From Patescibacteria group bacterium (GTDB taxonomy: Bacteria; Patescibacteriota; UBA1384; XYA2-FULL-43-10; 1-14-0-10-43-13), in contig JBAYVE010000001.1 in assembly GCA_041674765.1 (NCBI GenBank), positions 198,177 through 262,176 of the forward strand: DNA of 64,000 nucleotides, written 5' to 3'. Below, one piece after another: positions 1,874 to 64,000 of the stretch. Below the pieces are notes generated by a model. The model was not told the DNA's origin and did no database searches. It saw only the letters and a list, made by a program, of their open reading frames with translations. The position numbers were made by a program, and so were the translations under genes. Every line of letters begins with the position of its first letter. Within the stretch, counting starts at the first letter, position 1.

Positions 1874-2902
1874 ATGAATGAAGAAGAAATAAGGCCTGAA
1901 GCTGATCTACTGGTGCCAAGCAAGAAGCCGGTTTGGCTCTTTGTTGTTATTGGCTTGATCATAATTGTCGGGGTTGGCATTTTGACATATTCGCTAGGTA
2001 AAGCAAAGCCGGCGAAAAACAGCGATGACAGTATTATTAAGACGGAAAATGAGACAAAGGATCTGCCGGCTGCTACTTCGGTTGACGACAGCCCGTACAA
2101 TTGGTCGACGATGGATCAGGGGCCATACAATGACAAGATTTCCTACGCCACAAGCACTGATCTTTTGAACTGGAAGGATTCCGGCAAGATTCTCGCCACT
2201 CATGCCAGCGTACCGGACTTAGTTATGAAAGACGGCACGATTTTTGCCTACTTTGTCGATGTTTCGACTGATGGCGTTGCCGAACAGACAGGGATGGTCA
2301 AATCAACAGATGGAGGAATTACCTGGAGCGAGAGGCAGATCATTAATATTGAGGGTATTGGTGACAAAGCGGTTGCTGATCCGGCTCCAATTTTATTGTC
2401 AGACGGACGAATCCGCCTTTTCTATTTTGATATCAAGGAAAATAGAATTAGGAAGCAAAAGGGACCTAGCACCAACAAAATTTACTCCGCCATTTCCTCC
2501 GATGGGGTAAATTTCACCCAAGAAGATGGCGTCCGGTTCGAGTACGAAATGGTTTTTGATCCCGATGTGATTAAAATCTCTGATAATTTATGGCGGATGT
2601 ATGTCGGAGACGGCGAGGGTCAAAAAGTTTTGTCGGCGACTTCGACTGACGGCCTGACCTTTACCTATGAGGGGATTGCTTTCTCTGGCGGAGCCATCCC
2701 GAATGTAATATTTGAGAATAACAGATATTATCTCTTTACAGTCGGCATCGAAATCTCTACTTCTCCTGATGGTAAAATATTCACAAAAGCTCCAAACCGT
2801 TTTGACAGTGGAAAACTAACTGCCGATCCTGGAGTTATCAAAATTGCTGAGGGCAAATATTTGATGGTCTACAAGACAAGCGAGATGAAGCCAAAAATAT
2901 AA
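1874..2902 (+). CDS. membrane-anchored Asp-box (BNR) beta-propeller protein, glycosidase/sialidase-like
   Basis: SD AGAGGGG precedes the ATG. N-terminal TM helix. Asp-box motifs STDGGITWSE, SSDGVNF, STDGLTF, SPDGKIF. Paralog of 13378..14457. Confidence 0.5.
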   Translation: MNEEEIRPEADLLVPSKKPVWLFVVIGLIIIVGVGILTYSLGKAKPAKNSDDSIIKTENETKDLPAATSVDDSPYNWSTMDQGPYNDKISYATSTDLLNWKDSGKILATHASVPDLVMKDGTIFAYFVDVSTDGVAEQTGMVKSTDGGITWSERQIINIEGIGDKAVADPAPILLSDGRIRLFYFDIKENRIRKQKGPSTNKIYSAISSDGVNFTQEDGVRFEYEMVFDPDVIKISDNLWRMYVGDGEGQKVLSATSTDGLTFTYEGIAFSGGAIPNVIFENNRYYLFTVGIEISTSPDGKIFTKAPNRFDSGKLTADPGVIKIAEGKYLMVYKTSEMKPKI

Positions 2903-3008
2903 TCATTTGAATGATTCTTCTACCAGCCTGTCTCTGATACATCGAAAGATATTTTGCATACCGTCTTCTGGATCTGCATTCAAGTCGGCGGACGCTGATC
3001 TATATGCC

Positions 3009-3911
3009 CTATGCTTTCTTTTCGCATTGAAATAGTTCGCCCAATGAAGAAGCGACTAAGTTTTCAGTCAATTTTCGAGAGCCAACCTTTATCGAAATTT
3101 CCTTTAAGTCTAGGAATCGGTCGGCTAGTCTTTTTTCAATGATGGCCACTTCCCGATCAATTTCCTCCAGAGTTTTTTTCGAATTATAAATCAGAGAAAA
3201 ACTGACAAAGTTATTCGATCCTAGCCTTCTTGTTTTAAGATCATCATATTTGATTTTGTTGGCTTCAAGCCACATCTTCAATCGTTCTCCGAGCTCCGGA
3301 TTCGATCGGTTTACCAGGGAGTCTGATACTTCATGACCCAGCTGCCAGGCTTCATAGAAAATATAAAGACCTAGGAGAATAGCCAGGACAGAATCGGCAA
3401 AATTATAGACCGAAATCAGTGCGAGCCCCAGGAAGAGGACAGCTGATGTCAGGCCATTTATCCTGGAATGTTCGGCATCTGAGATAAGCGCTATCGATGC
3501 ATATTTGCTGCCATAGTAAAACTTTAATCTGGCCATTATCTCATTGACGATAGCTGAGGCAAACATGACAACGAGGCTGAAATAGGTGAAAGTGGCATTG
3601 AATCGATGATCTACTAGAGTGGAGATCGCTTCAAAGATAATCCAGCCGCTAGCAGCAAAAAGCAACAAAATAATGGTAGAACGGATATATTTTTCGTATT
3701 TTTGTTGCTTTGCAATTCGTTCCTGACTTGGAACCCTAGTTTCAAGCCGGATGCCGAAATAAGCAATTATCGAAGAAAAAGCATCTAACAAGGAGCGGAC
3801 GGACTCGGTGATCAGAGATAGACAACCACTAAAAATACCTGCCAACAGTTTAATAATTGCAAGTAAAAGATTAATAAGAACAGACCACAATGCCAGATCT
3901 TTCGGTTTCAT
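3009..3911 (-). CDS. cation diffusion facilitator (CDF) family metal efflux transporter
   Basis: 300 aa with six predicted TM helices and a C-terminal cytoplasmic domain. Overall CzcD/FieF-like organisation. Confidence 0.75.
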   Translation of the reverse strand: MKPKDLALWSVLINLLLAIIKLLAGIFSGCLSLITESVRSLLDAFSSIIAYFGIRLETRVPSQERIAKQQKYEKYIRSTIILLLFAASGWIIFEAISTLVDHRFNATFTYFSLVVMFASAIVNEIMARLKFYYGSKYASIALISDAEHSRINGLTSAVLFLGLALISVYNFADSVLAILLGLYIFYEAWQLGHEVSDSLVNRSNPELGERLKMWLEANKIKYDDLKTRRLGSNNFVSFSLIYNSKKTLEEIDREVAIIEKRLADRFLDLKEISIKVGSRKLTENLVASSLGELFQCEKKA

Positions 3912-3980
3912 TTATACTATTATATGCTTCTTTTTAGCAAAAAAGTAGTATACCTTCAGAGTCACTTATCTATTCATTAT

Positions 3981-5381
3981 TTAAAAGTAAAGATCTCGTT
4001 CGCCTAATTCGAGTTTTTGTAGGCGTTCCCTGGTTTTATTTGCCACTTCTTTTGAGGGGATTAATCCTAAATATTTTTGGATGATGTTTTCACCTTTCCT
4101 CTTAACTTCCGGCGTAGCAAAATCGATCAAGTATTCCTTGAACGTAAGAATTGCATTTGGACGGCAGAAATTATGGATATTTCCAGGCTTCGCTATCTCC
4201 ATAAAATCTTTGCCGGTACGGTGGCTTCGATAGCAAGCGGTACAAAAAGAGGGGAGCAAGCCCTGCTTCAGGAGGCCTTCGACTACTTGATCCAGTGTCC
4301 GTTCATCGTTTACGACGAATTGAACTTCATGATCGGGGATCAAACTTTTATCTTTTTTTTCGCTATATCCGCCAACTTCGACACGGGAGGCGGCACTAGT
4401 CTGAGAGATGCCAAGCTTGAAAGCTTTTAATCTGGTTTCTGGTTTTTCTCTGGTCGAGATAATCATCCCAGTATACGGGACAGCCAGACGTAGGATAGCA
4501 ATAATTTTTAGCAGTTCATCTTCGGTGACAGGATATGGTGGCTTGAAATCGACAGTTGCAGCCGGCCTGAAACGGGGGACTGAGATAGTATGAGGGCCGA
4601 CGCCAAAAACCTTGTCCATATATTGGGCATGTGAGACAAGAGCCAAGACTTCAAATTGCCAATCATAAAGACCGAAAAGAACGCCGATGCCGAGATCGTC
4701 GATTCCGCCGGCAAAAGCATTGTTATGAGCAAAAAGCTGACGTTCATATTCTGCCTTGGGACCATTATGTAACTTCTCAAAAGTTGGCCTGTGATAAGTT
4801 TCCTGGAAAAGTTGATAGGTGCCGATCCCTGAATCTTTCAATTTTCGATAATTTTCCGCTGTAGTGGCAGCGATGTTTACATTAACACGGCGAATTTTGT
4901 TCGGTCCGACATTTACCTTATAGATCTCGTTGATGACCTTAACAACATAATCAATAGGGCATTCAAGAGGATGTTCGCCAAATTCCAAAAGTAGACGCTT
5001 ATGTCCCATTTTGATTAGGATCTCTGTCTGTTCGCGAACTTCTTGCAGAGTTAATTTTCGCCTTGGCAGGTTGTTCCTTCGGTGAAAGCCGCAATATTCG
5101 CAGTCGTTGACGCAAAAATCAGAGACATAGAGCGGGGCAAAAAGAACGATCCGTTCGCCATAAATTTCCTGCTTGATTTTCCAGGCTGTATCGAAGATCT
5201 CTTTGATTAATTTTGGTTCTTTGCAACCGCAAAGTAAACCGACCTCGGAGAGGGTGAGCCCTTTTTTCTTTTCCGCTTTCCTTAGAATAGCCTTGATTTG
5301 TAGTGGTTTTGGATTCGATGACCGCTTCAAGACATCATCAATCAGTTGTTCATCAATAACTTCTTTTACGTTTTTTCCCAT
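3981..5381 (-). CDS. hydG: radical SAM protein of the ThiH/HydG family; the C-terminal CX2CX22C motif suggests a HydG-like tyrosine lyase
   Basis: Radical SAM motif CVNDCEYCGF (CX3CX2C). Length 466 aa. C-terminal CTAC-(22 aa)-C matches the auxiliary-cluster motif of HydG. Confidence 0.55.
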   Translation of the reverse strand: MGKNVKEVIDEQLIDDVLKRSSNPKPLQIKAILRKAEKKKGLTLSEVGLLCGCKEPKLIKEIFDTAWKIKQEIYGERIVLFAPLYVSDFCVNDCEYCGFHRRNNLPRRKLTLQEVREQTEILIKMGHKRLLLEFGEHPLECPIDYVVKVINEIYKVNVGPNKIRRVNVNIAATTAENYRKLKDSGIGTYQLFQETYHRPTFEKLHNGPKAEYERQLFAHNNAFAGGIDDLGIGVLFGLYDWQFEVLALVSHAQYMDKVFGVGPHTISVPRFRPAATVDFKPPYPVTEDELLKIIAILRLAVPYTGMIISTREKPETRLKAFKLGISQTSAASRVEVGGYSEKKDKSLIPDHEVQFVVNDERTLDQVVEGLLKQGLLPSFCTACYRSHRTGKDFMEIAKPGNIHNFCRPNAILTFKEYLIDFATPEVKRKGENIIQKYLGLIPSKEVANKTRERLQKLELGERDLYF

Positions 5382-50889: not shown

Positions 50890-53142
50890 ATGTTCACAAA
50901 AATCCGGAAAAGAAATGGCAAACTTGTCGATTTCGATGCTGAAAAAATTGCAACAGTCATAGCCAAAGCTGGTAAAGCCGCAGGTGAGTTCGACGAAGCG
51001 GTTGCCAAAAAGCTGGCAGACAAAGTCCTGAGGGAGGCACCGGAAAAAATCAGGCGCAAAATTCCGACGGTAGAGGAGATACAAGATATCGTCGAAGACG
51101 TTTTATTGACGTCTAAATATAAAGCGACAGCGAGGGGATACGTTATCTACCGTCAGAAACACGCTGAAATGCGTGAATTAGCTGAAACTCAAAGAGTCGA
51201 TCTGATGGATCAATATTTGAAAAATCTTGACTGGCAGGTCAAGGAGAACTCCAATATGGCTTATTCGCTTCAGGGGTTAAACAATTATATTTCCTCCGAA
51301 GTTTCGAAAAGCTACTGGTTGCACAAAGTTTACACTCCAGAAGTCGCCCGTGCCAATTCTGAAGGCGATATGCATATCCATGACCTAGATAAGCTCTCGA
51401 CCTATTGTGTCGGCTGGGACCTTCAGGATCTCTTGCGCGAAGGTTTTAAGGGTGCTGAAGGCAAGATCGAGTCGAAGCCTGCAAAACATCTCAAAACTGC
51501 CTTGGGCCAGCTTGTAAATTTCTTCTACACAATGCAGGGCGAGTCAGCCGGGGCTCAGGCCGTTTCTAATTTCGATACCCTGATGGCACCATATATTCGC
51601 TATGATAAGCTCTCGGTCAAAGAGGTCAAACAGAGTTTGCAGGAATTCATGTTCAATATGAATGTGCCAACGAGAGTTGGTTTTCAGACACCTTTTACTA
51701 ATGTGACGATGGATTTGATTTGCCCGAGCACTTTGGCTGACGAACCGGTTATCTCGGGGGGGCAACCTCAAAAGGAGACCTATAAAGAGTTCCAAAAAGA
51801 GATGAATATTTTCAACGAAGCCTTTACTGAAGTTATCTCTGAGGGCGACGCCAGAGGCCGTGTTTTTACTTTCCCGATCCCTACTTACAACATCACCAAG
51901 GATTTTGACTGGAGCAACAAAGAAATCGACGGGGTTTGGAAGATGACCGCTAAATATGGAATTCCTTATTTCTCAAACTTTGTAAATTCCGATATGAGTC
52001 CTGAAGATGCCCGAAGCATGTGTTGCCGTCTCCGTCTGGATAATCGCGAGCTTCGGAAACGCGGCGGCGGACTATTCGGCGCAAATCCGCTGACTGGTTC
52101 TGTCGGCGTGGTAACAATCAATTTACCCAGACTCGGTTACCGTTCAAGGGACAAAAGAGAATTCCTCTACAATCTTTCCTATGTCATGGATCTGGCCAAA
52201 GAGAGTCTCGAAATGAAGCGTAAAGTTTTGGAGAATATGACCGAAGCCGGACTCTATCCTTACACCAAATTCTATCTGCGCAATATTAAAAAGAGAGACG
52301 ATCGTTATTGGGGCAACCATTTCTCGACCATCGGCCTCTTGGGTATGAATGAAGCTTGTCTGAACCTTTTCGGCCGTGATGTTACAACGGCAGAAGGTCA
52401 GCAGTTTGCCAGAGAAGTGCTCGAATTTATGCGCGAGAGAATGGCTGTTTACCAAAATGAAACCGGTAATTATTACAACTTGGAAGCAACTCCGGCCGAA
52501 GGCACCTCCTTCCGTTTGGCGTTAAAAGACAAAGAGAGATATCCGGACATTATGGTCGCCAATGAAGGACAATATCAAGATCAAAAAGTCTCTCCATATT
52601 ATACCAATTCATCCCACGTCCCCGTTGATTTTACGGATGATGCCTTCGAACTGCTTGATCTCCAAGATGATCTACAGACAAAATATACCGGCGGTACGGT
52701 GGTCCATCTCTTTGTCGGAGAAGAAATAAAGGATACTACGGCAGTCAAAAACTTTGTTCGGACAGTTTGTGAAAATTATCATCTACCATACTTCACGATC
52801 ACTCCGACCTTCTCTATCTGCCCAAACCACGGTTATATCGCCGGCAAGGTGATGACCTGTGAAAAGTGTGGTGCCGCGAACGAAGTTTACTCACGAATAG
52901 TTGGTTATATCCGCCCTATTCAGCAGTGGAATGCCGGCAAACGGGCCGAATTTGATGACCGCCAGACTTACCATATTGAGGTTAAGAAGAACAAAGAAGA
53001 AGAAAGCGCAACTGAAGAATTATCATTTGTTGATCAGATCAAAGATAAAGCGGACGAGATCAAGGAGAAAATTGCCGATGTTGTGATAGAGCCGGCTTTA
53101 GCGGAGGTGGGAGCAGACTCGGAACAAGCAGCACTGGTATAG
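50890..53142 (+). CDS. nrdD: anaerobic ribonucleoside-triphosphate reductase (class III)
   Basis: SD GGAGGGAG. N-terminal ATP-cone (KIRKRNGKLVDFDAEKI). C-terminal Zn ribbon CPNHG..CEKCG. Glycyl-radical motif RIVGYIR. Confidence 0.9.
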   Translation: MFTKIRKRNGKLVDFDAEKIATVIAKAGKAAGEFDEAVAKKLADKVLREAPEKIRRKIPTVEEIQDIVEDVLLTSKYKATARGYVIYRQKHAEMRELAETQRVDLMDQYLKNLDWQVKENSNMAYSLQGLNNYISSEVSKSYWLHKVYTPEVARANSEGDMHIHDLDKLSTYCVGWDLQDLLREGFKGAEGKIESKPAKHLKTALGQLVNFFYTMQGESAGAQAVSNFDTLMAPYIRYDKLSVKEVKQSLQEFMFNMNVPTRVGFQTPFTNVTMDLICPSTLADEPVISGGQPQKETYKEFQKEMNIFNEAFTEVISEGDARGRVFTFPIPTYNITKDFDWSNKEIDGVWKMTAKYGIPYFSNFVNSDMSPEDARSMCCRLRLDNRELRKRGGGLFGANPLTGSVGVVTINLPRLGYRSRDKREFLYNLSYVMDLAKESLEMKRKVLENMTEAGLYPYTKFYLRNIKKRDDRYWGNHFSTIGLLGMNEACLNLFGRDVTTAEGQQFAREVLEFMRERMAVYQNETGNYYNLEATPAEGTSFRLALKDKERYPDIMVANEGQYQDQKVSPYYTNSSHVPVDFTDDAFELLDLQDDLQTKYTGGTVVHLFVGEEIKDTTAVKNFVRTVCENYHLPYFTITPTFSICPNHGYIAGKVMTCEKCGAANEVYSRIVGYIRPIQQWNAGKRAEFDDRQTYHIEVKKNKEEESATEELSFVDQIKDKADEIKEKIADVVIEPALAEVGADSEQAALV

Positions 53143-53266
53143 GCGGGAACACCCAAATCTCAAGTACCAAATAACAAATAAATTCCAATGCCCAAAAATA
53201 AAATATTGGAATTTGATGATTTTAAGATTTATTTGGTACTTGTTATTTGTAATTTATTATTTAACT

Positions 53267-54028
53267 ATGAACATCGCAGGTATCCAAAAACTTACTCTGG
53301 TGGACTTTCCCGGTCATGTGGCAGCGACGGTTTTTACTAGAGGCTGTACTTTTCGCTGTCCTTTCTGCCACAATCCTGAGCTGGTTGTACCGGAACAATT
53401 TAGTCCTCTTCTATCCGAAAAACAGATTTTTGATTTCTTAGAGTCGCGCTACGGGAAATTGACTGGAATATGCCTGACCGGTGGTGAACCGACCATGCAA
53501 AAGGATTGCGACCAGTTCATCTCCCATATGAAGGCGCTTGGCTTTGATATGAAATTAGATACCAACGGCTCGAATCCAAAGATGCTGGAGAAAATCATCA
53601 AGGATGGTGATGTCGACTATATCGCCATGGACATCAAGGGAACACTTGAAAAGTATCCCCAAATTATCAATTATCAATTATCAATTATCAATAATGGAAT
53701 TGGCAATTTAGAGATTGAAAAATTAAGTGAAAATTGGAAATTGAAAAATGAAAATTTAATATCGAACATTCAAAAATCCATCAAATTGATCATGTCATCG
53801 GGAATTGACTATGAATTTCGGACCACGATTTGCCATCCCATTCATGAAGTCGAGGATTTCTACGGCATAGGGGAATTGATCAAAGGTGCCAAGCGCTATT
53901 TTATACAACAATTTGTCAAGTCAAAACATGTCGATGCTCACCAGAACTTTGAGCCGTTTACTGACTCTGAGATCGCAAAATCTCTCGATATTATACAACA
54001 ATTTGTCAAGTCGGCAGAGGTAAGATAG
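53267..54028 (+). CDS. nrdG: anaerobic ribonucleotide reductase activating protein (radical SAM) with low-complexity insertion
   Basis: MNIAGIQKLTLVDFPGHVAATVFTRGCTFRCPFCHNPEL (CX3CX2C). Insertion IINYQLSIINNG is encoded by an AATTATC triplet repeat. Duplicated IQQFVKS near the C-terminus. Confidence 0.7.
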   Translation: MNIAGIQKLTLVDFPGHVAATVFTRGCTFRCPFCHNPELVVPEQFSPLLSEKQIFDFLESRYGKLTGICLTGGEPTMQKDCDQFISHMKALGFDMKLDTNGSNPKMLEKIIKDGDVDYIAMDIKGTLEKYPQIINYQLSIINNGIGNLEIEKLSENWKLKNENLISNIQKSIKLIMSSGIDYEFRTTICHPIHEVEDFYGIGELIKGAKRYFIQQFVKSKHVDAHQNFEPFTDSEIAKSLDIIQQFVKSAEVR

Positions 54029-59307: not shown

Positions 59308-59607
59308 ATGGACGATAAAAAAGATTTTACTCCTGCAGAGCCAAATCAGAAGCTGTTCATTGGTGGGTTAGCTTGGGCTGCAACTGATGAAGATTTACAA
59401 GAGGCTTTCAGTCCGTTTGGTGAAGTTGTTTCTGCATCTGTAGTCAAGTATCCTGACACAGGCAGATCAAAGGGCTTCGCTTTTGTCGAGTTTGCAACCG
59501 TCGAGGAAGCAACCAAAGCAAAAGAGGAAATGGACGGCAAGGAAATTCAAGGCAGAGCAATCAAAGTTGATTTCGCTATGCCAAGAAAAGAAAGAACCGA
59601 AGAGTAG
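59308..59607 (+). CDS. RNA-binding protein with RRM domain
   Basis: RNP2 LFIGGL and RNP1 KGFAFVEF. Confidence 0.8.
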   Translation: MDDKKDFTPAEPNQKLFIGGLAWAATDEDLQEAFSPFGEVVSASVVKYPDTGRSKGFAFVEFATVEEATKAKEEMDGKEIQGRAIKVDFAMPRKERTEE

Positions 59608-59817: not shown

Positions 59818-60063
59818 ATGAAACACAAAAATATTTATAGCCGTTTGAGGCGGATTGAAGGCCAGATTCGCGGTATTGAAGAGATGATCGAGAAGGGTCG
59901 GAGTGAACAGGAAATTATGATTCAACTTCAGGCCGCCAAATCATCAATTGCTGGAGCTATCACCTCGTTTGTTGAAGGGATGCTTACTAAAAATGAAAAA
60001 GGCGAAGTAATAGTGCCGCCGGAAAACGCTGCAACTATTCTTCGTCTCTTAAAAAACAGTTAA
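59818..60063 (+). CDS. CsoR/RcnR/FrmR-family (DUF156) transcriptional repressor-like protein lacking the usual Cys ligands
   Basis: RLRRIEGQIRGIEEMIE is the family N-terminal signature. No Cys in 81 aa. Confidence 0.55.
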   Translation: MKHKNIYSRLRRIEGQIRGIEEMIEKGRSEQEIMIQLQAAKSSIAGAITSFVEGMLTKNEKGEVIVPPENAATILRLLKNS

Positions 60064-60393: not shown

Positions 60394-60612
60394 ATGTCAG
60401 AAGAAAAAAAGAAAGTTTTGAAAATTGATGAGGACGTTTGTATCGGTTGCAATACCTGTGAAAGTATAGCGCCAGATTATTTCAAGATTGATGGCGGAGT
60501 CTCCAAGGTGATAAAAGCTTATGACGAGAATGATGCAGAGCTAATACAGGACGTTATTGACAGTTGTCCGGTTCAGGCTATTACTGTTGAGGAAGAAACA
60601 CCGCAAGAATAA
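60394..60612 (+). CDS. small ferredoxin (single [4Fe-4S]/[3Fe-4S] cluster type)
   Basis: CIGCNTCESIAP ... DSCPVQAI. Confidence 0.7.
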   Translation: MSEEKKKVLKIDEDVCIGCNTCESIAPDYFKIDGGVSKVIKAYDENDAELIQDVIDSCPVQAITVEEETPQE

Positions 60613-60674
60613 ACATTTATTGTTCCAGCTCTAAGAATTAAGGAAATATTTTAATTCTTAGGCTTGATCCTTAA

Positions 60675-61076
60675 TTGCTGGAAATAATGGAGAGGGGAAG
60701 CAAAATAAACACAATTTTCTCTTGGTGGTATGGCCTGGCCTTTCAGAATCTGGCATCCAACCTCAGAGGAATATATCTATATCTCTTTGATGCCTTTTCG
60801 GTCAAGATTTGCCTCTCGACTCTCTTTTCTGTTTGGCGCCGGGATATGATTTCTTATCAGAATCTATCACTCCAGGAAGTTTTGCAGGCTTGGATGCTAA
60901 ATTTATCATCAAGAATAATAGGCTTTCTGGTAAAAGTAGCTACACTGATATCTTTTGCCGCCATGACGCTAGCTTTCTCATTTGTTTCGGTGATTCTGAT
61001 TTTTTGCTGGTTTCTCATGCCGCTCCTAATCCCAGCAATATTTGTTATCGGCATTAAAATTGCGATAGGAGTTTGA
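60675..61076 (+). CDS. hypothetical membrane protein immediately upstream of the Clp ATPase gene
   Basis: C-terminal three TM helices. Stop 1 nt before the next ATG. Confidence 0.35.
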   Translation: MLEIMERGSKINTIFSWWYGLAFQNLASNLRGIYLYLFDAFSVKICLSTLFSVWRRDMISYQNLSLQEVLQAWMLNLSSRIIGFLVKVATLISFAAMTLAFSFVSVILIFCWFLMPLLIPAIFVIGIKIAIGV

Positions 61077-61077
61077 G

Positions 61078-63570
61078 ATGCCGGTAAAGTACTATCTGAA
61101 GGCGGCGGGTCCTATCTTCCGCTCAGTAAAATATAAGGGCAACTACACTTCCTCATCTTATAAATTCTTTTCTTTTGGCGTCTGGCTATTGGGAATATCT
61201 TCGATAGTTACGATTATTGCCAATTACACCTTTTATCCTTTTGGAAATGCGATTGGTTTTTCGTTTATGATTTTCGCCCCTTTCTTAGCATATGCGATTT
61301 ATAGTTTCTATATTAAAGATACTATTTTAGAGCCAAAATATCCGGCGTTGGCAAAGATCAATGAGCGAGAAGGGGACATTAATCTTTTCGACTATATCTC
61401 AGTCGATCTTGCTGAAAAAATTTGGCCGCTTTTCAAATCGGGAAATGTTGTTTCCTCGATGGAATTCTTACCCAAACTAATCGAATGCAGCTCTCTAAAT
61501 TTCATTTTTCTTCGTCTGGGAATTAACAAAGACGATTTTTTGGCGGCCATCTTGGCCATACCCAAAGAGGAGGACATTACTTCGACAATATTGAAAACGG
61601 TTAGCGTCGCTATTAAAAATGGTCATTCTTCTATTTGGGCCGGGGATATATTGATCACTTTGGCGGAAGAGGGACGGATGGATAAGATTCTCGACGCTCT
61701 GAAGCTTGAGGAGAAGGATCTTATCTCATTGGTCAGGTGGCAGACGAAAAATTTAGATAGAATCAATGAGTTCAATAAGAGATTTGATTTCAAGAATCCT
61801 AAATTGACGGGAGGCATCGGTCGGGATTGGGCCTATGGCTACACACTTTTTCTGCGTCAATTTGCTTATGATTTGGAGTCGATAATCCAAAAGTCAGGTC
61901 TCGGGTCCGAAGTCGTCGGTCGGGAGAGAGAGATGATGGAGATGGAGGAAGGATTGCTAAATCAATCTAATAGTAACGTCGTAGTTGTGGGAGAGGCTGG
62001 GGTAGGCAAAAAAACAACCATCATCGGCTTTGCAAAAAAGATATTGGACGGAGAAGTCAGCCCCGGATTGGCACATTACCATGTCTTTCAGTTGAATATT
62101 GAAGCGCTGTTATCAGGGAGTGGCGGTATTAATGAAACTATTGCCAACATCGGCCAGGTTATGGCCGAAGCTTCCTACGCCGGCAACGTTATTATTTTTG
62201 TTGAGAATATAGACAATCTTTTCTCCAACCGAAATGCCGGTCAGATCGACGCGTCTGAGGTATTAATGCCTTATCTCGATGCCGGTAATGTCCGGATCAT
62301 CGGTACCTGCGATGTCGCTGGTTATAACAATTCGATTCTTTCTAATTCAGCTCTTTCCAGTAAATTCATCCGGGTTTCCTTAAATGAACCGACTGTTGAT
62401 CAGACCATCGAGATATTGGAAGATTCGGTGCCGCTGATTGAATATAGGACTAAATCGATTATTTCATATGAGGCATTGAAGGAGGCCGTTAAGCTGGCGG
62501 ATAAATTCATTATGGATATTCCAAATCCAGAAAAATCAATTGGCTTATTGGAGGGAGCTTCTTTGCGAGCCTCTTCCGATCGAGCAGAAACTATTGTTCT
62601 ACCGAAGGATGTCAGCGATTATATCGAATCGAAATATCAAATTCCTCTTGGAGAGGTTACCGACAAGGAGCGAGAAGTCCTTTTGGCTCTTGGTGAGGAA
62701 ATGCACAAATCGGTAATCGGGCAGAATGAAGCGATCGAATCAGTCGTCGGAGCGATGAGAAGAGCCAGGGCTCAGGTGACGGACTCGAAGAAACCGATCG
62801 GTTCTTTTCTCTTTCTGGGGCCGACAGGTGTAGGAAAAACGGCGACTGCAAAAGCATTGGCCAAAGCTTATTTTGGCGGAGAGGAAAGGATGATCCGCTT
62901 TGATATGTCTGAATATCAAAACAGCCAAGATATATATAGGCTCATCGGTAAAAGTTTTGGTGGAGATGAAGAGCAGGGAAATCTTGTCACTGCAATTCGT
63001 GAAAAACCTTTTTCTTTGCTTTTATTTGATGAGGTAGAAAAAGCCGATCCGGATATTCTTAATTTGTTTTTGCAAATATTGGACGAGGGCATTTTGACCG
63101 ATGGCAGTGGACGGAAGGTGTCTTTTGCTAATACAATTATTATTGCCACTTCGAACGCCGGTGCTGATTTGATACGTGAGTCGATCTCAAACGGTGAAAA
63201 CTATGAAAAAACTAAAACCGCTCTGGTTGAATATTTGCAAGATCAGCATATTTTCAGACCCGAATTGATTAATCGTTTTTCCGGCGTCATCGCCTTCTCG
63301 ACTTTGTCCTCAGAGGAGATCAGGCAGGTAGCTACTATCATGTTTGCAGGCGTTCAGGACACAGTTTACAACAATCAGGGAATTAAGGTGATGATTTCAC
63401 CTGATGCCATCGATATTCTCTCCGAGATGGGCTTTGACCAGAGGATGGGCGCTCGTCCGATGGAAAGAATTATTCAGGAAAAGGTTGAAAATCTCTTGGC
63501 TGAGAAAATATTGAGTCGTGAACTAAAAAAGGGTGATCAATTTATGATCACCAAAGAGTTGATACTTTAA
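61078..63570 (+). CDS. membrane-anchored Clp/Hsp100-family AAA+ ATPase (TM helices + Clp_N repeats + degenerate D1 + canonical D2)
   Basis: Two N-terminal TM helices. Clp_N-like double repeat. D1 Walker A GEAGVGKKT (Lys insertion) and Walker B IIFVENID (no DE). D2 GPTGVGKTATAKALA and LLLFDEVEKA. ATSNAG sensor. Confidence 0.7.
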   Translation: MPVKYYLKAAGPIFRSVKYKGNYTSSSYKFFSFGVWLLGISSIVTIIANYTFYPFGNAIGFSFMIFAPFLAYAIYSFYIKDTILEPKYPALAKINEREGDINLFDYISVDLAEKIWPLFKSGNVVSSMEFLPKLIECSSLNFIFLRLGINKDDFLAAILAIPKEEDITSTILKTVSVAIKNGHSSIWAGDILITLAEEGRMDKILDALKLEEKDLISLVRWQTKNLDRINEFNKRFDFKNPKLTGGIGRDWAYGYTLFLRQFAYDLESIIQKSGLGSEVVGREREMMEMEEGLLNQSNSNVVVVGEAGVGKKTTIIGFAKKILDGEVSPGLAHYHVFQLNIEALLSGSGGINETIANIGQVMAEASYAGNVIIFVENIDNLFSNRNAGQIDASEVLMPYLDAGNVRIIGTCDVAGYNNSILSNSALSSKFIRVSLNEPTVDQTIEILEDSVPLIEYRTKSIISYEALKEAVKLADKFIMDIPNPEKSIGLLEGASLRASSDRAETIVLPKDVSDYIESKYQIPLGEVTDKEREVLLALGEEMHKSVIGQNEAIESVVGAMRRARAQVTDSKKPIGSFLFLGPTGVGKTATAKALAKAYFGGEERMIRFDMSEYQNSQDIYRLIGKSFGGDEEQGNLVTAIREKPFSLLLFDEVEKADPDILNLFLQILDEGILTDGSGRKVSFANTIIIATSNAGADLIRESISNGENYEKTKTALVEYLQDQHIFRPELINRFSGVIAFSTLSSEEIRQVATIMFAGVQDTVYNNQGIKVMISPDAIDILSEMGFDQRMGARPMERIIQEKVENLLAEKILSRELKKGDQFMITKELIL

Positions 63571-63596: not shown

Positions 63597-63652
63597 ACGT
63601 CTTAGACCTTAGACCTTAGAACTTAGACCTTAGACCTTAGACCTTAGACCTT
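63597..63652. repeat. heptanucleotide tandem repeat (CTTAGAC) x7
   Basis: CTTAGAC CTTAGAC CTTAGAA CTTAGAC x4, between convergent genes. Confidence 0.8.
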
Positions 63653-63918
63653 TATTTATGGATATACACGGTGGTTCCGATATCAGTCCAATCGAAAACT
63701 GTTTGGGCAGAGCCTATTCCTAAGCGAACACAGCCATGGGAAACAGGGGTGCCCAAATGGGATTCGCCTTCCTTGTAGCCGTTGGGCCACTCGGGAAGTT
63801 CATGGATGCCATAGTCTCCACTAAACTGCTGCCAGTATGGCATCCAGAGACCGTATTTGCCTGACCATTGTTTTGGATTCTTGCTGGTAATATGAAATTC
63901 ACCGGTTGGTGTAGGCAT
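63652..63918 (-). CDS. L,D-transpeptidase (YkuD) catalytic domain protein; N-terminal extent uncertain, may continue beyond 63918
   Basis: HLGTPVSHGCVRL catalytic His/Cys motif. Confidence 0.5.
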   Translation of the reverse strand: MPTPTGEFHITSKNPKQWSGKYGLWMPYWQQFSGDYGIHELPEWPNGYKEGESHLGTPVSHGCVRLGIGSAQTVFDWTDIGTTVYIHK

Positions 63919-64000
63919 TGACGGCTTCCCTGAGGATATAATAAAACAATCAATTAAATTTGGACCCTCTACCCTGCATAGCTTTTGGTTTGCTAGGTCA

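Follow-up and report, generated by a model that had tools for sequence, protein, structure and literature searches.

The stretch of DNA analysed here, referred to as the window, comprises 64,000 nucleotides (nt) of contig JBAYVE010000001.1 from a Patescibacteria group bacterium and carries, close to its end and on the forward strand, two adjacent genes that encode a small membrane protein and a large, membrane-anchored ATPase with the two-ring organization of the Clp/Hsp100 proteins. The best explanation of their features is that the two genes are translationally coupled and encode a two-component AAA+ machine of the cytoplasmic membrane, which would be found almost only in the Candidate Phyla Radiation (CPR)/Patescibacteria. 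The ATPase gene extends from 61078 to 63570 (+), and its product of 830 amino acids (aa) has the same sequence as the NCBI entry 'MAG: AAA family ATPase [Patescibacteria group bacterium]' (MAG, metagenome-assembled genome), which comes from a 365-kb contig. The gene of the small membrane partner (60687..61076, +; 129 aa) precedes it, with a stop codon at 61074-61076, and the ATG of the ATPase gene begins 1 nt later. In this respect, the list of open reading frames (ORFs) confirms an earlier note on this DNA, made from the sequence alone, which had described both the 830-aa frame and an upstream gene ending 1 nt before it. The AGGAG ribosome-binding site of the ATPase gene is located within the last codons of the small gene. 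An alternative TTG start of the small gene is present at 60675; the ATG at 60687 is most likely the one in use, given that database protein P0121 has exactly the sequence of the 129-aa product and that the homologues start alike.

Architecture of the ATPase

Domain searches describe the ATPase as a Clp-like protein that belongs to none of the curated Clp families. In Pfam it is matched by AAA_2 (residues 572-735), ClpB_D2-small (743-823) and AAA_lid_9 (440-505), as well as by AAA and, weakly, at the P-loop of the first ring (D1); Peptidase_M41 gives no match. In NCBIfam the matches are partial and all scores lie far under the curated cut-offs (885-1900): 443.7 against 1232.1 for ClpB (TIGR03346), 408 against 993 for ClpA (TIGR02639) and 374 against 885 for ClpV (TIGR03345), with ClpK and ClpG also matched in part. 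In the PDB, ClpB (1qvr, E 1e-111), the best sequence match overall, and ClpC align in two stretches that correspond to D1 (258-513) and to the second ring, D2 (506-824), the identity to ClpB in D2 being about 43-50%. ClpA aligns in a single stretch (259-824), which indicates that no M-domain is inserted in the ATPase. An AlphaFold2 model computed with 53 relatives (predicted local distance difference test, pLDDT, 85.9; predicted TM-score, pTM, 0.79) contains two canonical AAA+ modules, and a Foldseek search with this model retrieves protomers of ClpC, ClpC1, ClpB and ClpA at a target TM-score of about 0.8 over some 575 residues, ClpC/ClpC1 being the best. The family statistics given here and below are based on 54 full-length relatives, including the window protein, and the comparisons with ordinary Clp proteins on a set of 66. 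The spacer between the D1 lid and D2 measures 62-74 aa in the family as against 190 in ClpB and 127 in ClpC. The UVR-type M-domain PF02151 is carried by the ordinary ClpC/ClpE matches and is present in the precomputed Pfam list of no family member.

The N-terminus of the protein is occupied by a transmembrane helical hairpin (residues 26-83; 61153..61326, +), as indicated by hydropathy, the AlphaFold2 model and the distribution of charges. Indeed, hydropathy marks residues 29-49 and 58-79, and the model contains long helices at 26-52 and 57-83. In addition, the 28 residues preceding the hairpin include five Lys/Arg and no acidic residue, and the short outer loop between the helices, YTFYPFGN, is uncharged, a pattern that fits a chain entering and leaving the hairpin on the inner side, as the ATPase requires. 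The hairpin is found in 54/54 relatives and at the N-terminus of none of the 66 ordinary Clp proteins from the same search, so that the two N-terminal transmembrane helices described by the earlier note hold for the whole family. A divergent, all-helical Clp_N-like N-domain (residues ~88-235; 61339..61782, +) follows, which was delimited with hhalign and with the model, where residues 91-233 are helical throughout. The Clp_N repeats claimed for this part of the protein are not matched by the Pfam Clp_N model; what stands is a weakly supported and only remote homology, the family profile (region 82-244) aligning with an ordinary Clp_N profile over 99 columns (hhalign 96.7%, E 4.3e-10). Directly before D1, the family alignment reveals a family-specific linker motif, GGIGRDWAYGYT (residues 245-256; 61810..61845, +), in which G246, I247, G248, D250, W251 and G254 are each at least 90% conserved. 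Together with the catalytic motifs of D2, it is among the most conserved elements of the family and is absent from ordinary Clp proteins. As residues ~241-256 have low confidence in the model, the linker is probably flexible.

The D1 AAA+ module (residues 260-505; 61855..62592, +), as defined by alignment to ClpB/ClpC, by the family columns and by the model, is degenerate. Its aligned Walker A reads GEAGVGKKT (61990-62016, +) in place of GE[AP]GVGKTA, the Mg-binding Thr having been replaced by Lys. The earlier note had located this string correctly at the motif and had regarded the Lys as an extra residue; an insertion of K312 was rejected, the alignment being ungapped there. At the aligned Walker B (62191-62208, +), hhhhDE has become IIFVEN, with Glu376 at the Asp position and Asn377 at that of the catalytic Glu, so that, of the acidic pair reported as lacking, the catalytic member is lost and one acidic residue is kept. 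The degeneration goes further than had been claimed, as alignment to ClpB/ClpC also reveals a pore loop changed from KYRGEFE to GGINETI, in which the Tyr position is Gly in the window protein and unconserved in the family, an Arg-finger pair changed from RR to SK and a sensor-1 changed from GATT to GTCD. Across the 54 relatives, the position of the catalytic Glu is occupied by Asn in 33, Asp in 10, Gly in 6 and Glu in only 2, and that of the Walker A Thr/Ser by Lys (16), Arg (15), Thr (12), Ser (5) and others, i.e., by a basic Lys/Arg in 31/54. The first Arg finger is retained in 1/54 and the second in 23/54. Within the D1 P-loop, G305, G308 and G310 are invariant and the P-loop Lys is Lys in 49 relatives and Arg in 5; as these glycines and the Lys are under selection, nucleotide binding is probably retained, and D1 would bind nucleotide without hydrolysing it. 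The mean identity of the window protein to its relatives is 36% in the large domain of D1 as against 61% in D2.

D2 is a conserved AAA+ module (residues 540-740; 62695..63297, +, from the alignment and the family columns) with a canonical Walker A, GPTGVGKT (62818-62841, +), and a canonical Walker B, LLLFDE (63016-63033, +), followed by the ClpB_D2-small C-terminal lid (residues 743-823; 63304..63546, +; PF10431, E 1.8e-20) with the sensor-2 motif GARPM. The Lys and Thr of Walker A, the Asp and Glu of Walker B, the sensor-1 Asn (N693), the Arg finger (R733) and the sensor-2 Arg are each present in 54/54 relatives. D2 had been described as fully canonical, which is correct for these elements and not for the pore loop (62947-62979, +), where alignment places the shortened GKSFGGDEEQG, devoid of GYVG, opposite GAPPGYVGYEEGG of ordinary Clp proteins, with GKSFGGD in place of GAPPGYVGY. 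The mean length of this loop is 9.3 aa in the family as compared with 13 in ordinary Clp proteins, the shortening amounting to 2-11 residues, and an aromatic residue is found in 6/54 members. The window protein is one of these six by virtue of Phe627, which is aligned to the Tyr of ClpB/ClpC, and a few relatives keep Tyr or Phe within a PAGYG-like loop. Between the D2 sensor-1 and the Arg finger, neither the ClpP-docking tripeptide [ILVM]G[FLM] nor a loop insertion is present in any member (0/54), whereas IGL or VGF occurs in the ClpC-type references; the segment has the length found in ClpB. As the tripeptide is missing and the spacer between the D1 lid and D2 is short, the ATPase has neither a ClpP dock nor an M-domain. 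Thus, the membrane-tethered, two-ring Clp protein with a catalytically lost D1 that the earlier note proposed is borne out, and it is a property of the whole family.

The small membrane partner and its linkage to the ATPase

The partner consists of a conserved N-terminal part, WWYG...FSV..L.TLFxPW[RK]R[D/I]...N..SR.IG..V[KR], and of a C-terminal hydrophobic block. Residues W13, W14, Y15, F37, S38, T45, F47, P49, S75, R76, G79, W108 and P112 are conserved. The block is unbroken over 57 residues (77-133 in the numbering of the ORF that begins at the TTG) and corresponds to a long helical region in the model; in the alignment of the 129-aa family, an invariant Pro112 and a near-invariant Trp108 lie in its middle. 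Most simply, it would form two transmembrane helices. The AlphaFold2 model, in which the small protein was folded alone (pLDDT 93.3), has a helix at 6-36, a short helix at 39-44, a loop at 45-61 and the helical region at 62-127. Of the three transmembrane segments once assigned to this protein, two are therefore accommodated in the block, and the third (residues 29-47), borderline with a mean hydropathy of 1.52, is weakly supported. Neither Pfam, NCBIfam nor PADLOC contains a match to the partner, and no meaningful similarity (E > 1) emerged when its profile was compared with the PDB or its high-confidence model was searched with Foldseek. With the profile of the partner family, 1,456 cluster representatives (50% identity) are retrieved, 1,032 of them at E <= 1e-10; among the matches listed, nearly all are stand-alone proteins of 117-150 aa, and the homologues are labelled hypothetical wherever the source gives a name. 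Binding of an acidic D2 loop of the ATPase to the basic motif of the partner was considered and rejected, the acidic content of the loop being that of ordinary Clp loops.

The association of the two genes is strikingly constant. In 83/87 loci, a hidden Markov model of the partner detects it directly upstream of the ATPase gene and in the same orientation; the other four loci end before the ATPase start. The two genes overlap or are separated by no more than 10 nt in 76/80. At the loci of five ATPase relatives the partner is likewise directly upstream, although it was shortened or missed by the gene call in two of the five. Moreover, P0033, P0036 and P0037 and loci L036 and L040 contain in-frame fusions, with the partner at the N-terminal end of the ATPase. 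In P0036, P0037 and L040 the two helices of the partner stand in for the ATPase hairpin and lead directly into the N-domain, which implies that the C-terminus of the partner is cytoplasmic and that the two anchors are interchangeable.

Distribution and genomic surroundings

In a scan of one genome per species across 185,579 species, the pattern GGIG[RK]DW[AS]xG led to 301 confirmed loci, a lower bound since the pattern is strict. Among the best 80 of these 301, almost all are labelled Patescibacteria, Berkelbacteria, Saccharibacteria/Saccharimonadales or Parcubacteria. Four of the best 80 carry other labels, namely Bathyarchaeia (L040), Sulfotelmatobacter (L070), Dormiibacterota (L082) and Verrucomicrobiia (L085). 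These are probably mis-binned or mislabelled MAG contigs, at least two of them sharing synteny with Saccharimonadales, as L070 and L082 have an exonuclease-III-like downstream neighbour in common with loci of that group. The family is defined by the hairpin, the GGIG[RK]DW linker, the loss of the D1 catalytic Glu, the intact D2 and the upstream WWYG/FSV/PW[RK]R gene, all of these being found with the window protein as well as with P0002-P0051 and L003-L087. On sequence grounds, the pair fits no named Clp family and is a new branch of Clp/Hsp100 with an uncharacterised partner family. In the literature searched, where papers on CPR protein families and transcriptomes group such genes as ClpB/ClpC, neither a membrane-anchored Clp/Hsp100 protein nor the small partner was found described. 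In particular, a survey of CPR protein families places Clp ATPases in one family and records ClpP as common and ClpX as rare in the CPR (PMC6744442). TM7x transcriptome papers list a 'clpB' (TM7x_03020), which may belong to the present family, along with clpP, and a paper on the genetics of Saccharibacteria does not mention Clp (PMC10187176).

Beyond the pair itself, the surroundings are variable. When the flanking ORFs of 77 loci were clustered, no third gene was conserved beside the pair, the biggest cluster having 7 members (YkuD) among 69 downstream ORFs. No protease or secretion genes are conserved near these 77 related loci, and no type VI secretion system (T6SS) genes lie near them or near the window gene. 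In the window, the YkuD gene encodes an L,D-transpeptidase of 468 aa with PG_binding_4, occupies 63652-64000 (-) and continues beyond (12575-13981 of L001), and is convergent with the ATPase gene; 7 Berkelbacteria-like loci have YkuD as the downstream neighbour. Other neighbours, which from a reading of their sequences we take to be Peptidase_C39_2-family, UppP-like, exonuclease-III-like and UMP kinase proteins, vary by lineage. Across the CPR lineages (L003-L087), the flanks of the pair often contain cell-envelope genes, such as those for YkuD, UppP-like, Peptidase_C39_2, MacB/FtsX-type ATP-binding cassette, M50-like protease and Mur-ligase-like proteins, with names mostly read from sequence. 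As none of these neighbours is conserved across lineages, they hint only weakly at a link to the envelope.

Just upstream of the pair are genes for a CsoR-like metal-sensing repressor (Trns_repr_metal; 59818-60063, +) and a 72-aa ferredoxin (Fer4_13/15; 60394-60612, +), a synteny seen in some Berkelbacteria-like loci and not in other lineages. A perfect 11-bp inverted repeat, CTAAGAATTAA ... TTAATTCTTAG, with a 9-nt loop lies at about 60631-60661, between the ferredoxin stop and the start of the small gene. It could act as a terminator or as an operator; it was not flagged by the terminator scan because it is AT-rich. Scans for promoters and terminators found nothing beyond shuffled expectation, and Rfam and tRNA scans found one distant tRNA-Asn only. 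The G+C content is about 0.39-0.46 over the whole window. Further upstream, 59308-59607 (+) encodes a 99-aa protein with a eukaryote-type RRM_1 domain, which has an equivalent position in L003 and L004. The window also contains an anaerobic ribonucleotide reductase, NrdD (ATP-cone and NRDD; 50890-53142, +), and its radical-SAM activase NrdG (53213-54028, +), which are consistent with an anaerobic CPR lifestyle.

Relation to known machines and possible mode of action

ClpA and ClpC are unfoldases of Clp/Hsp100 class I with ClpP as their docking partner. The ATPase shares with them the order of Clp_N-like domain, D1, D2 and D2-small lid and, like ClpA, has no long M-domain; it differs from both in the hairpin, the degenerate D1, the GGIGRDW linker and the obligate small membrane partner, and it has lost the IGF/IGL ClpP loop as well as the Tyr motifs of the pore loops. 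An identity with ClpA or ClpC was rejected on the missing docking loop, the TIGR02639 score under the cut-off and the absence of a UVR-type M-domain. With ClpB/Hsp104 it has in common the length of the segment following sensor-1, without a ClpP loop, whereas it is membrane anchored, is degenerate in D1 and in the pore loops and has no coiled-coil M-domain, for which reason it is considered to lack DnaK coupling; an identity with ClpB was rejected on the short spacer and on a TIGR03346 score under its cut-off. Similarly, ClpV/TssH was rejected on the TIGR03345 score and on the lack of a T6SS neighbourhood. FtsH and Msp1/ATAD1 are single-ring AAA proteins of the classical clade with conserved aromatic pore loops, FtsH having in addition an M41 protease domain. 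Although they resemble the ATPase in having an N-terminal membrane anchor with a cytoplasmic AAA+ ring beneath the membrane, the relation in sequence is limited to the shared AAA+ fold, and an identity with FtsH was rejected on the absence of Peptidase_M41 and on the two-ring Clp-like architecture. NSF, p97 and PEX1/PEX6, two-ring AAA+ proteins in which one ring is inactive or only weakly active, follow the same logic, the binding of nucleotide and the cohesion of the hexamer falling to one ring and the work to the other, but they belong to another AAA+ clade, are soluble and keep the pore loops of the active ring. A reading as a defence system was also rejected, as the PADLOC matches (Dodola DolB, PDC-M37B) cover D2 only (residues 512-705) and amount to generic Clp homology, with no PADLOC match for the partner.

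Torsins are single-ring, eukaryotic proteins of the lumen of the endoplasmic reticulum whose Arg finger is supplied by a cofactor. Together with LAP1/LULL1 they resemble the present pair in being Clp-D2-like and membrane associated, in missing the aromatic pore loops and in having a membrane protein as partner. They differ in that the ATPase has two rings and its own D2 Arg finger, and that its 129-aa bacterial partner has no detectable similarity to LAP1. Membership of the Torsin family was rejected, the Pfam match (E 0.038) reaching 14.5 bits as against a cut-off of 27.

The interpretation that we favour, and to which we assign about an even chance, is that of a ClpP-independent, D2-driven machine that remodels or extracts components of the membrane, working with or on the small partner. 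The ATPase would form a Clp-type hexamer beneath the membrane, with D1 as a nucleotide-binding, non-hydrolysing assembly or scaffold ring and D2 as the sole motor. The space between the membrane and the D1 ring would be taken up by the Clp_N-like domain and the GGIGRDW linker, which would touch the conserved cytoplasmic part of the partner, whose hairpin would pack alongside that of the ATPase. Hydrolysis of ATP by D2 would then remodel or pull the partner, or membrane clients presented by it, the outcome being remodelling or extraction and neither ClpP-coupled degradation nor DnaK-coupled disaggregation. Several points weigh against this proposal. The hexamer, the topology and the contact with the partner are elements that we infer. 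In two of the fusions, P0033 (residues 78-147) and L036 (ORF 2167-4872), there are three hydrophobic segments, not two or four, and with this odd number the ATPase would not end up in the cytoplasm unless one of the segments is re-entrant. The tblastn search that found neither clpP nor a second Clp ATPase covered only the window and the next 10 kb, 74 kb of the genome in all. Finally, as Phe627 is kept at the position of the pore-loop Tyr, the window protein may still thread substrates.

This last point leads to an unlikely alternative, in which the ATPase would unfold or extract membrane proteins by genuine threading, in the manner of Msp1/ATAD1 or of the ATPase part of FtsH, and pull its clients out of the bilayer through the central pore with Phe627 as the D2 pore-loop aromatic and with the small protein as an adaptor or substrate receptor. 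It is essentially the quality-control idea of the earlier note, and the membrane anchor beside an intact D2 motor, the alignment of Phe627 with the Tyr of ClpB/ClpC, the few relatives with Tyr or Phe in a PAGYG-like loop and a Clp_N-like domain that could bind clients or adaptors all speak for it. However, were the motif essential, one would expect the family to keep it as it keeps the catalytic residues of D2, and the aromatic is limited to six members, the D2 loop is shortened and the D1 pore loop is lost too. As neither ring keeps an aromatic pore loop across the family, the designation of the protein as an unfoldase is doubtful, and the quality-control and secretion-associated roles that the earlier note suggested are speculative. 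The same loss in both rings, together with an obligate membrane partner and the existence of natural fusions, speaks for a Torsin-like, non-threading switch, in which the nucleotide cycle of D2 assembles, disassembles or gates a complex made of the ATPase and partner hairpins. Torsins indeed are Clp-D2-like and membrane associated, have no pore-loop aromatics and need membrane cofactors (PMC5425593 in part). With a D2 Arg finger of its own in every relative, two rings and a Pfam Torsin match under the family cut-off, such a switch is nevertheless rather unlikely here.

A fourth explanation, by which the ATPase serves a protease (ClpP or FtsH) or a secretion apparatus of the ClpV/TssH type encoded elsewhere in the genome, appears very improbable. 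Since ClpP is widespread and ClpX rare in the CPR (PMC6744442), some Clp ATPase must serve ClpP, and the partial NCBIfam matches to ClpA, ClpB and ClpV would agree with such a role. Against it, those matches score far under their cut-offs, no relative has the ClpP-docking tripeptide or insertion, no protease or secretion genes are conserved in the 77 loci, and the 74 kb searched contain no clpP. The most far-reaching possibility, which we regard as quite improbable, is that of a CPR-specific, ring-shaped membrane complex of six ATPase and six partner hairpins, with at least 24 transmembrane helices, driven by a Torsin-like, non-threading two-ring Hsp100, whose action would be to gate or remodel the envelope and not to unfold proteins; it might, for instance, move or extract lipids or envelope components which host-dependent CPR bacteria are unable to make. 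If true, this would be a mode of action new to Clp/Hsp100, and the complex would be a component of CPR cell biology that defines the lineage.

Clp/Hsp100 ATPases are textbook examples of soluble machines that thread proteins by means of aromatic pore loops. The branch described here departs from this norm in being anchored to the membrane, in having one dead ring, in having lost the pore-loop motif, the ClpP dock and the DnaK-coupling domain, and in being tied to a small membrane protein, whose family of about 1,450 sequence clusters has no Pfam entry. CPR envelope biology is poorly understood, and the fact that Berkelbacteria, Saccharibacteria and Parcubacteria, with genomes so small and streamlined, have retained the pair points to a membrane function of importance to the CPR. 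As Saccharibacteria are now genetically tractable (PMC10187176), the prediction is directly testable. At present these proteins are annotated as 'ClpB', 'ClpC' or 'AAA family ATPase', names by which inventories of proteostasis in CPR genomes are probably misled.

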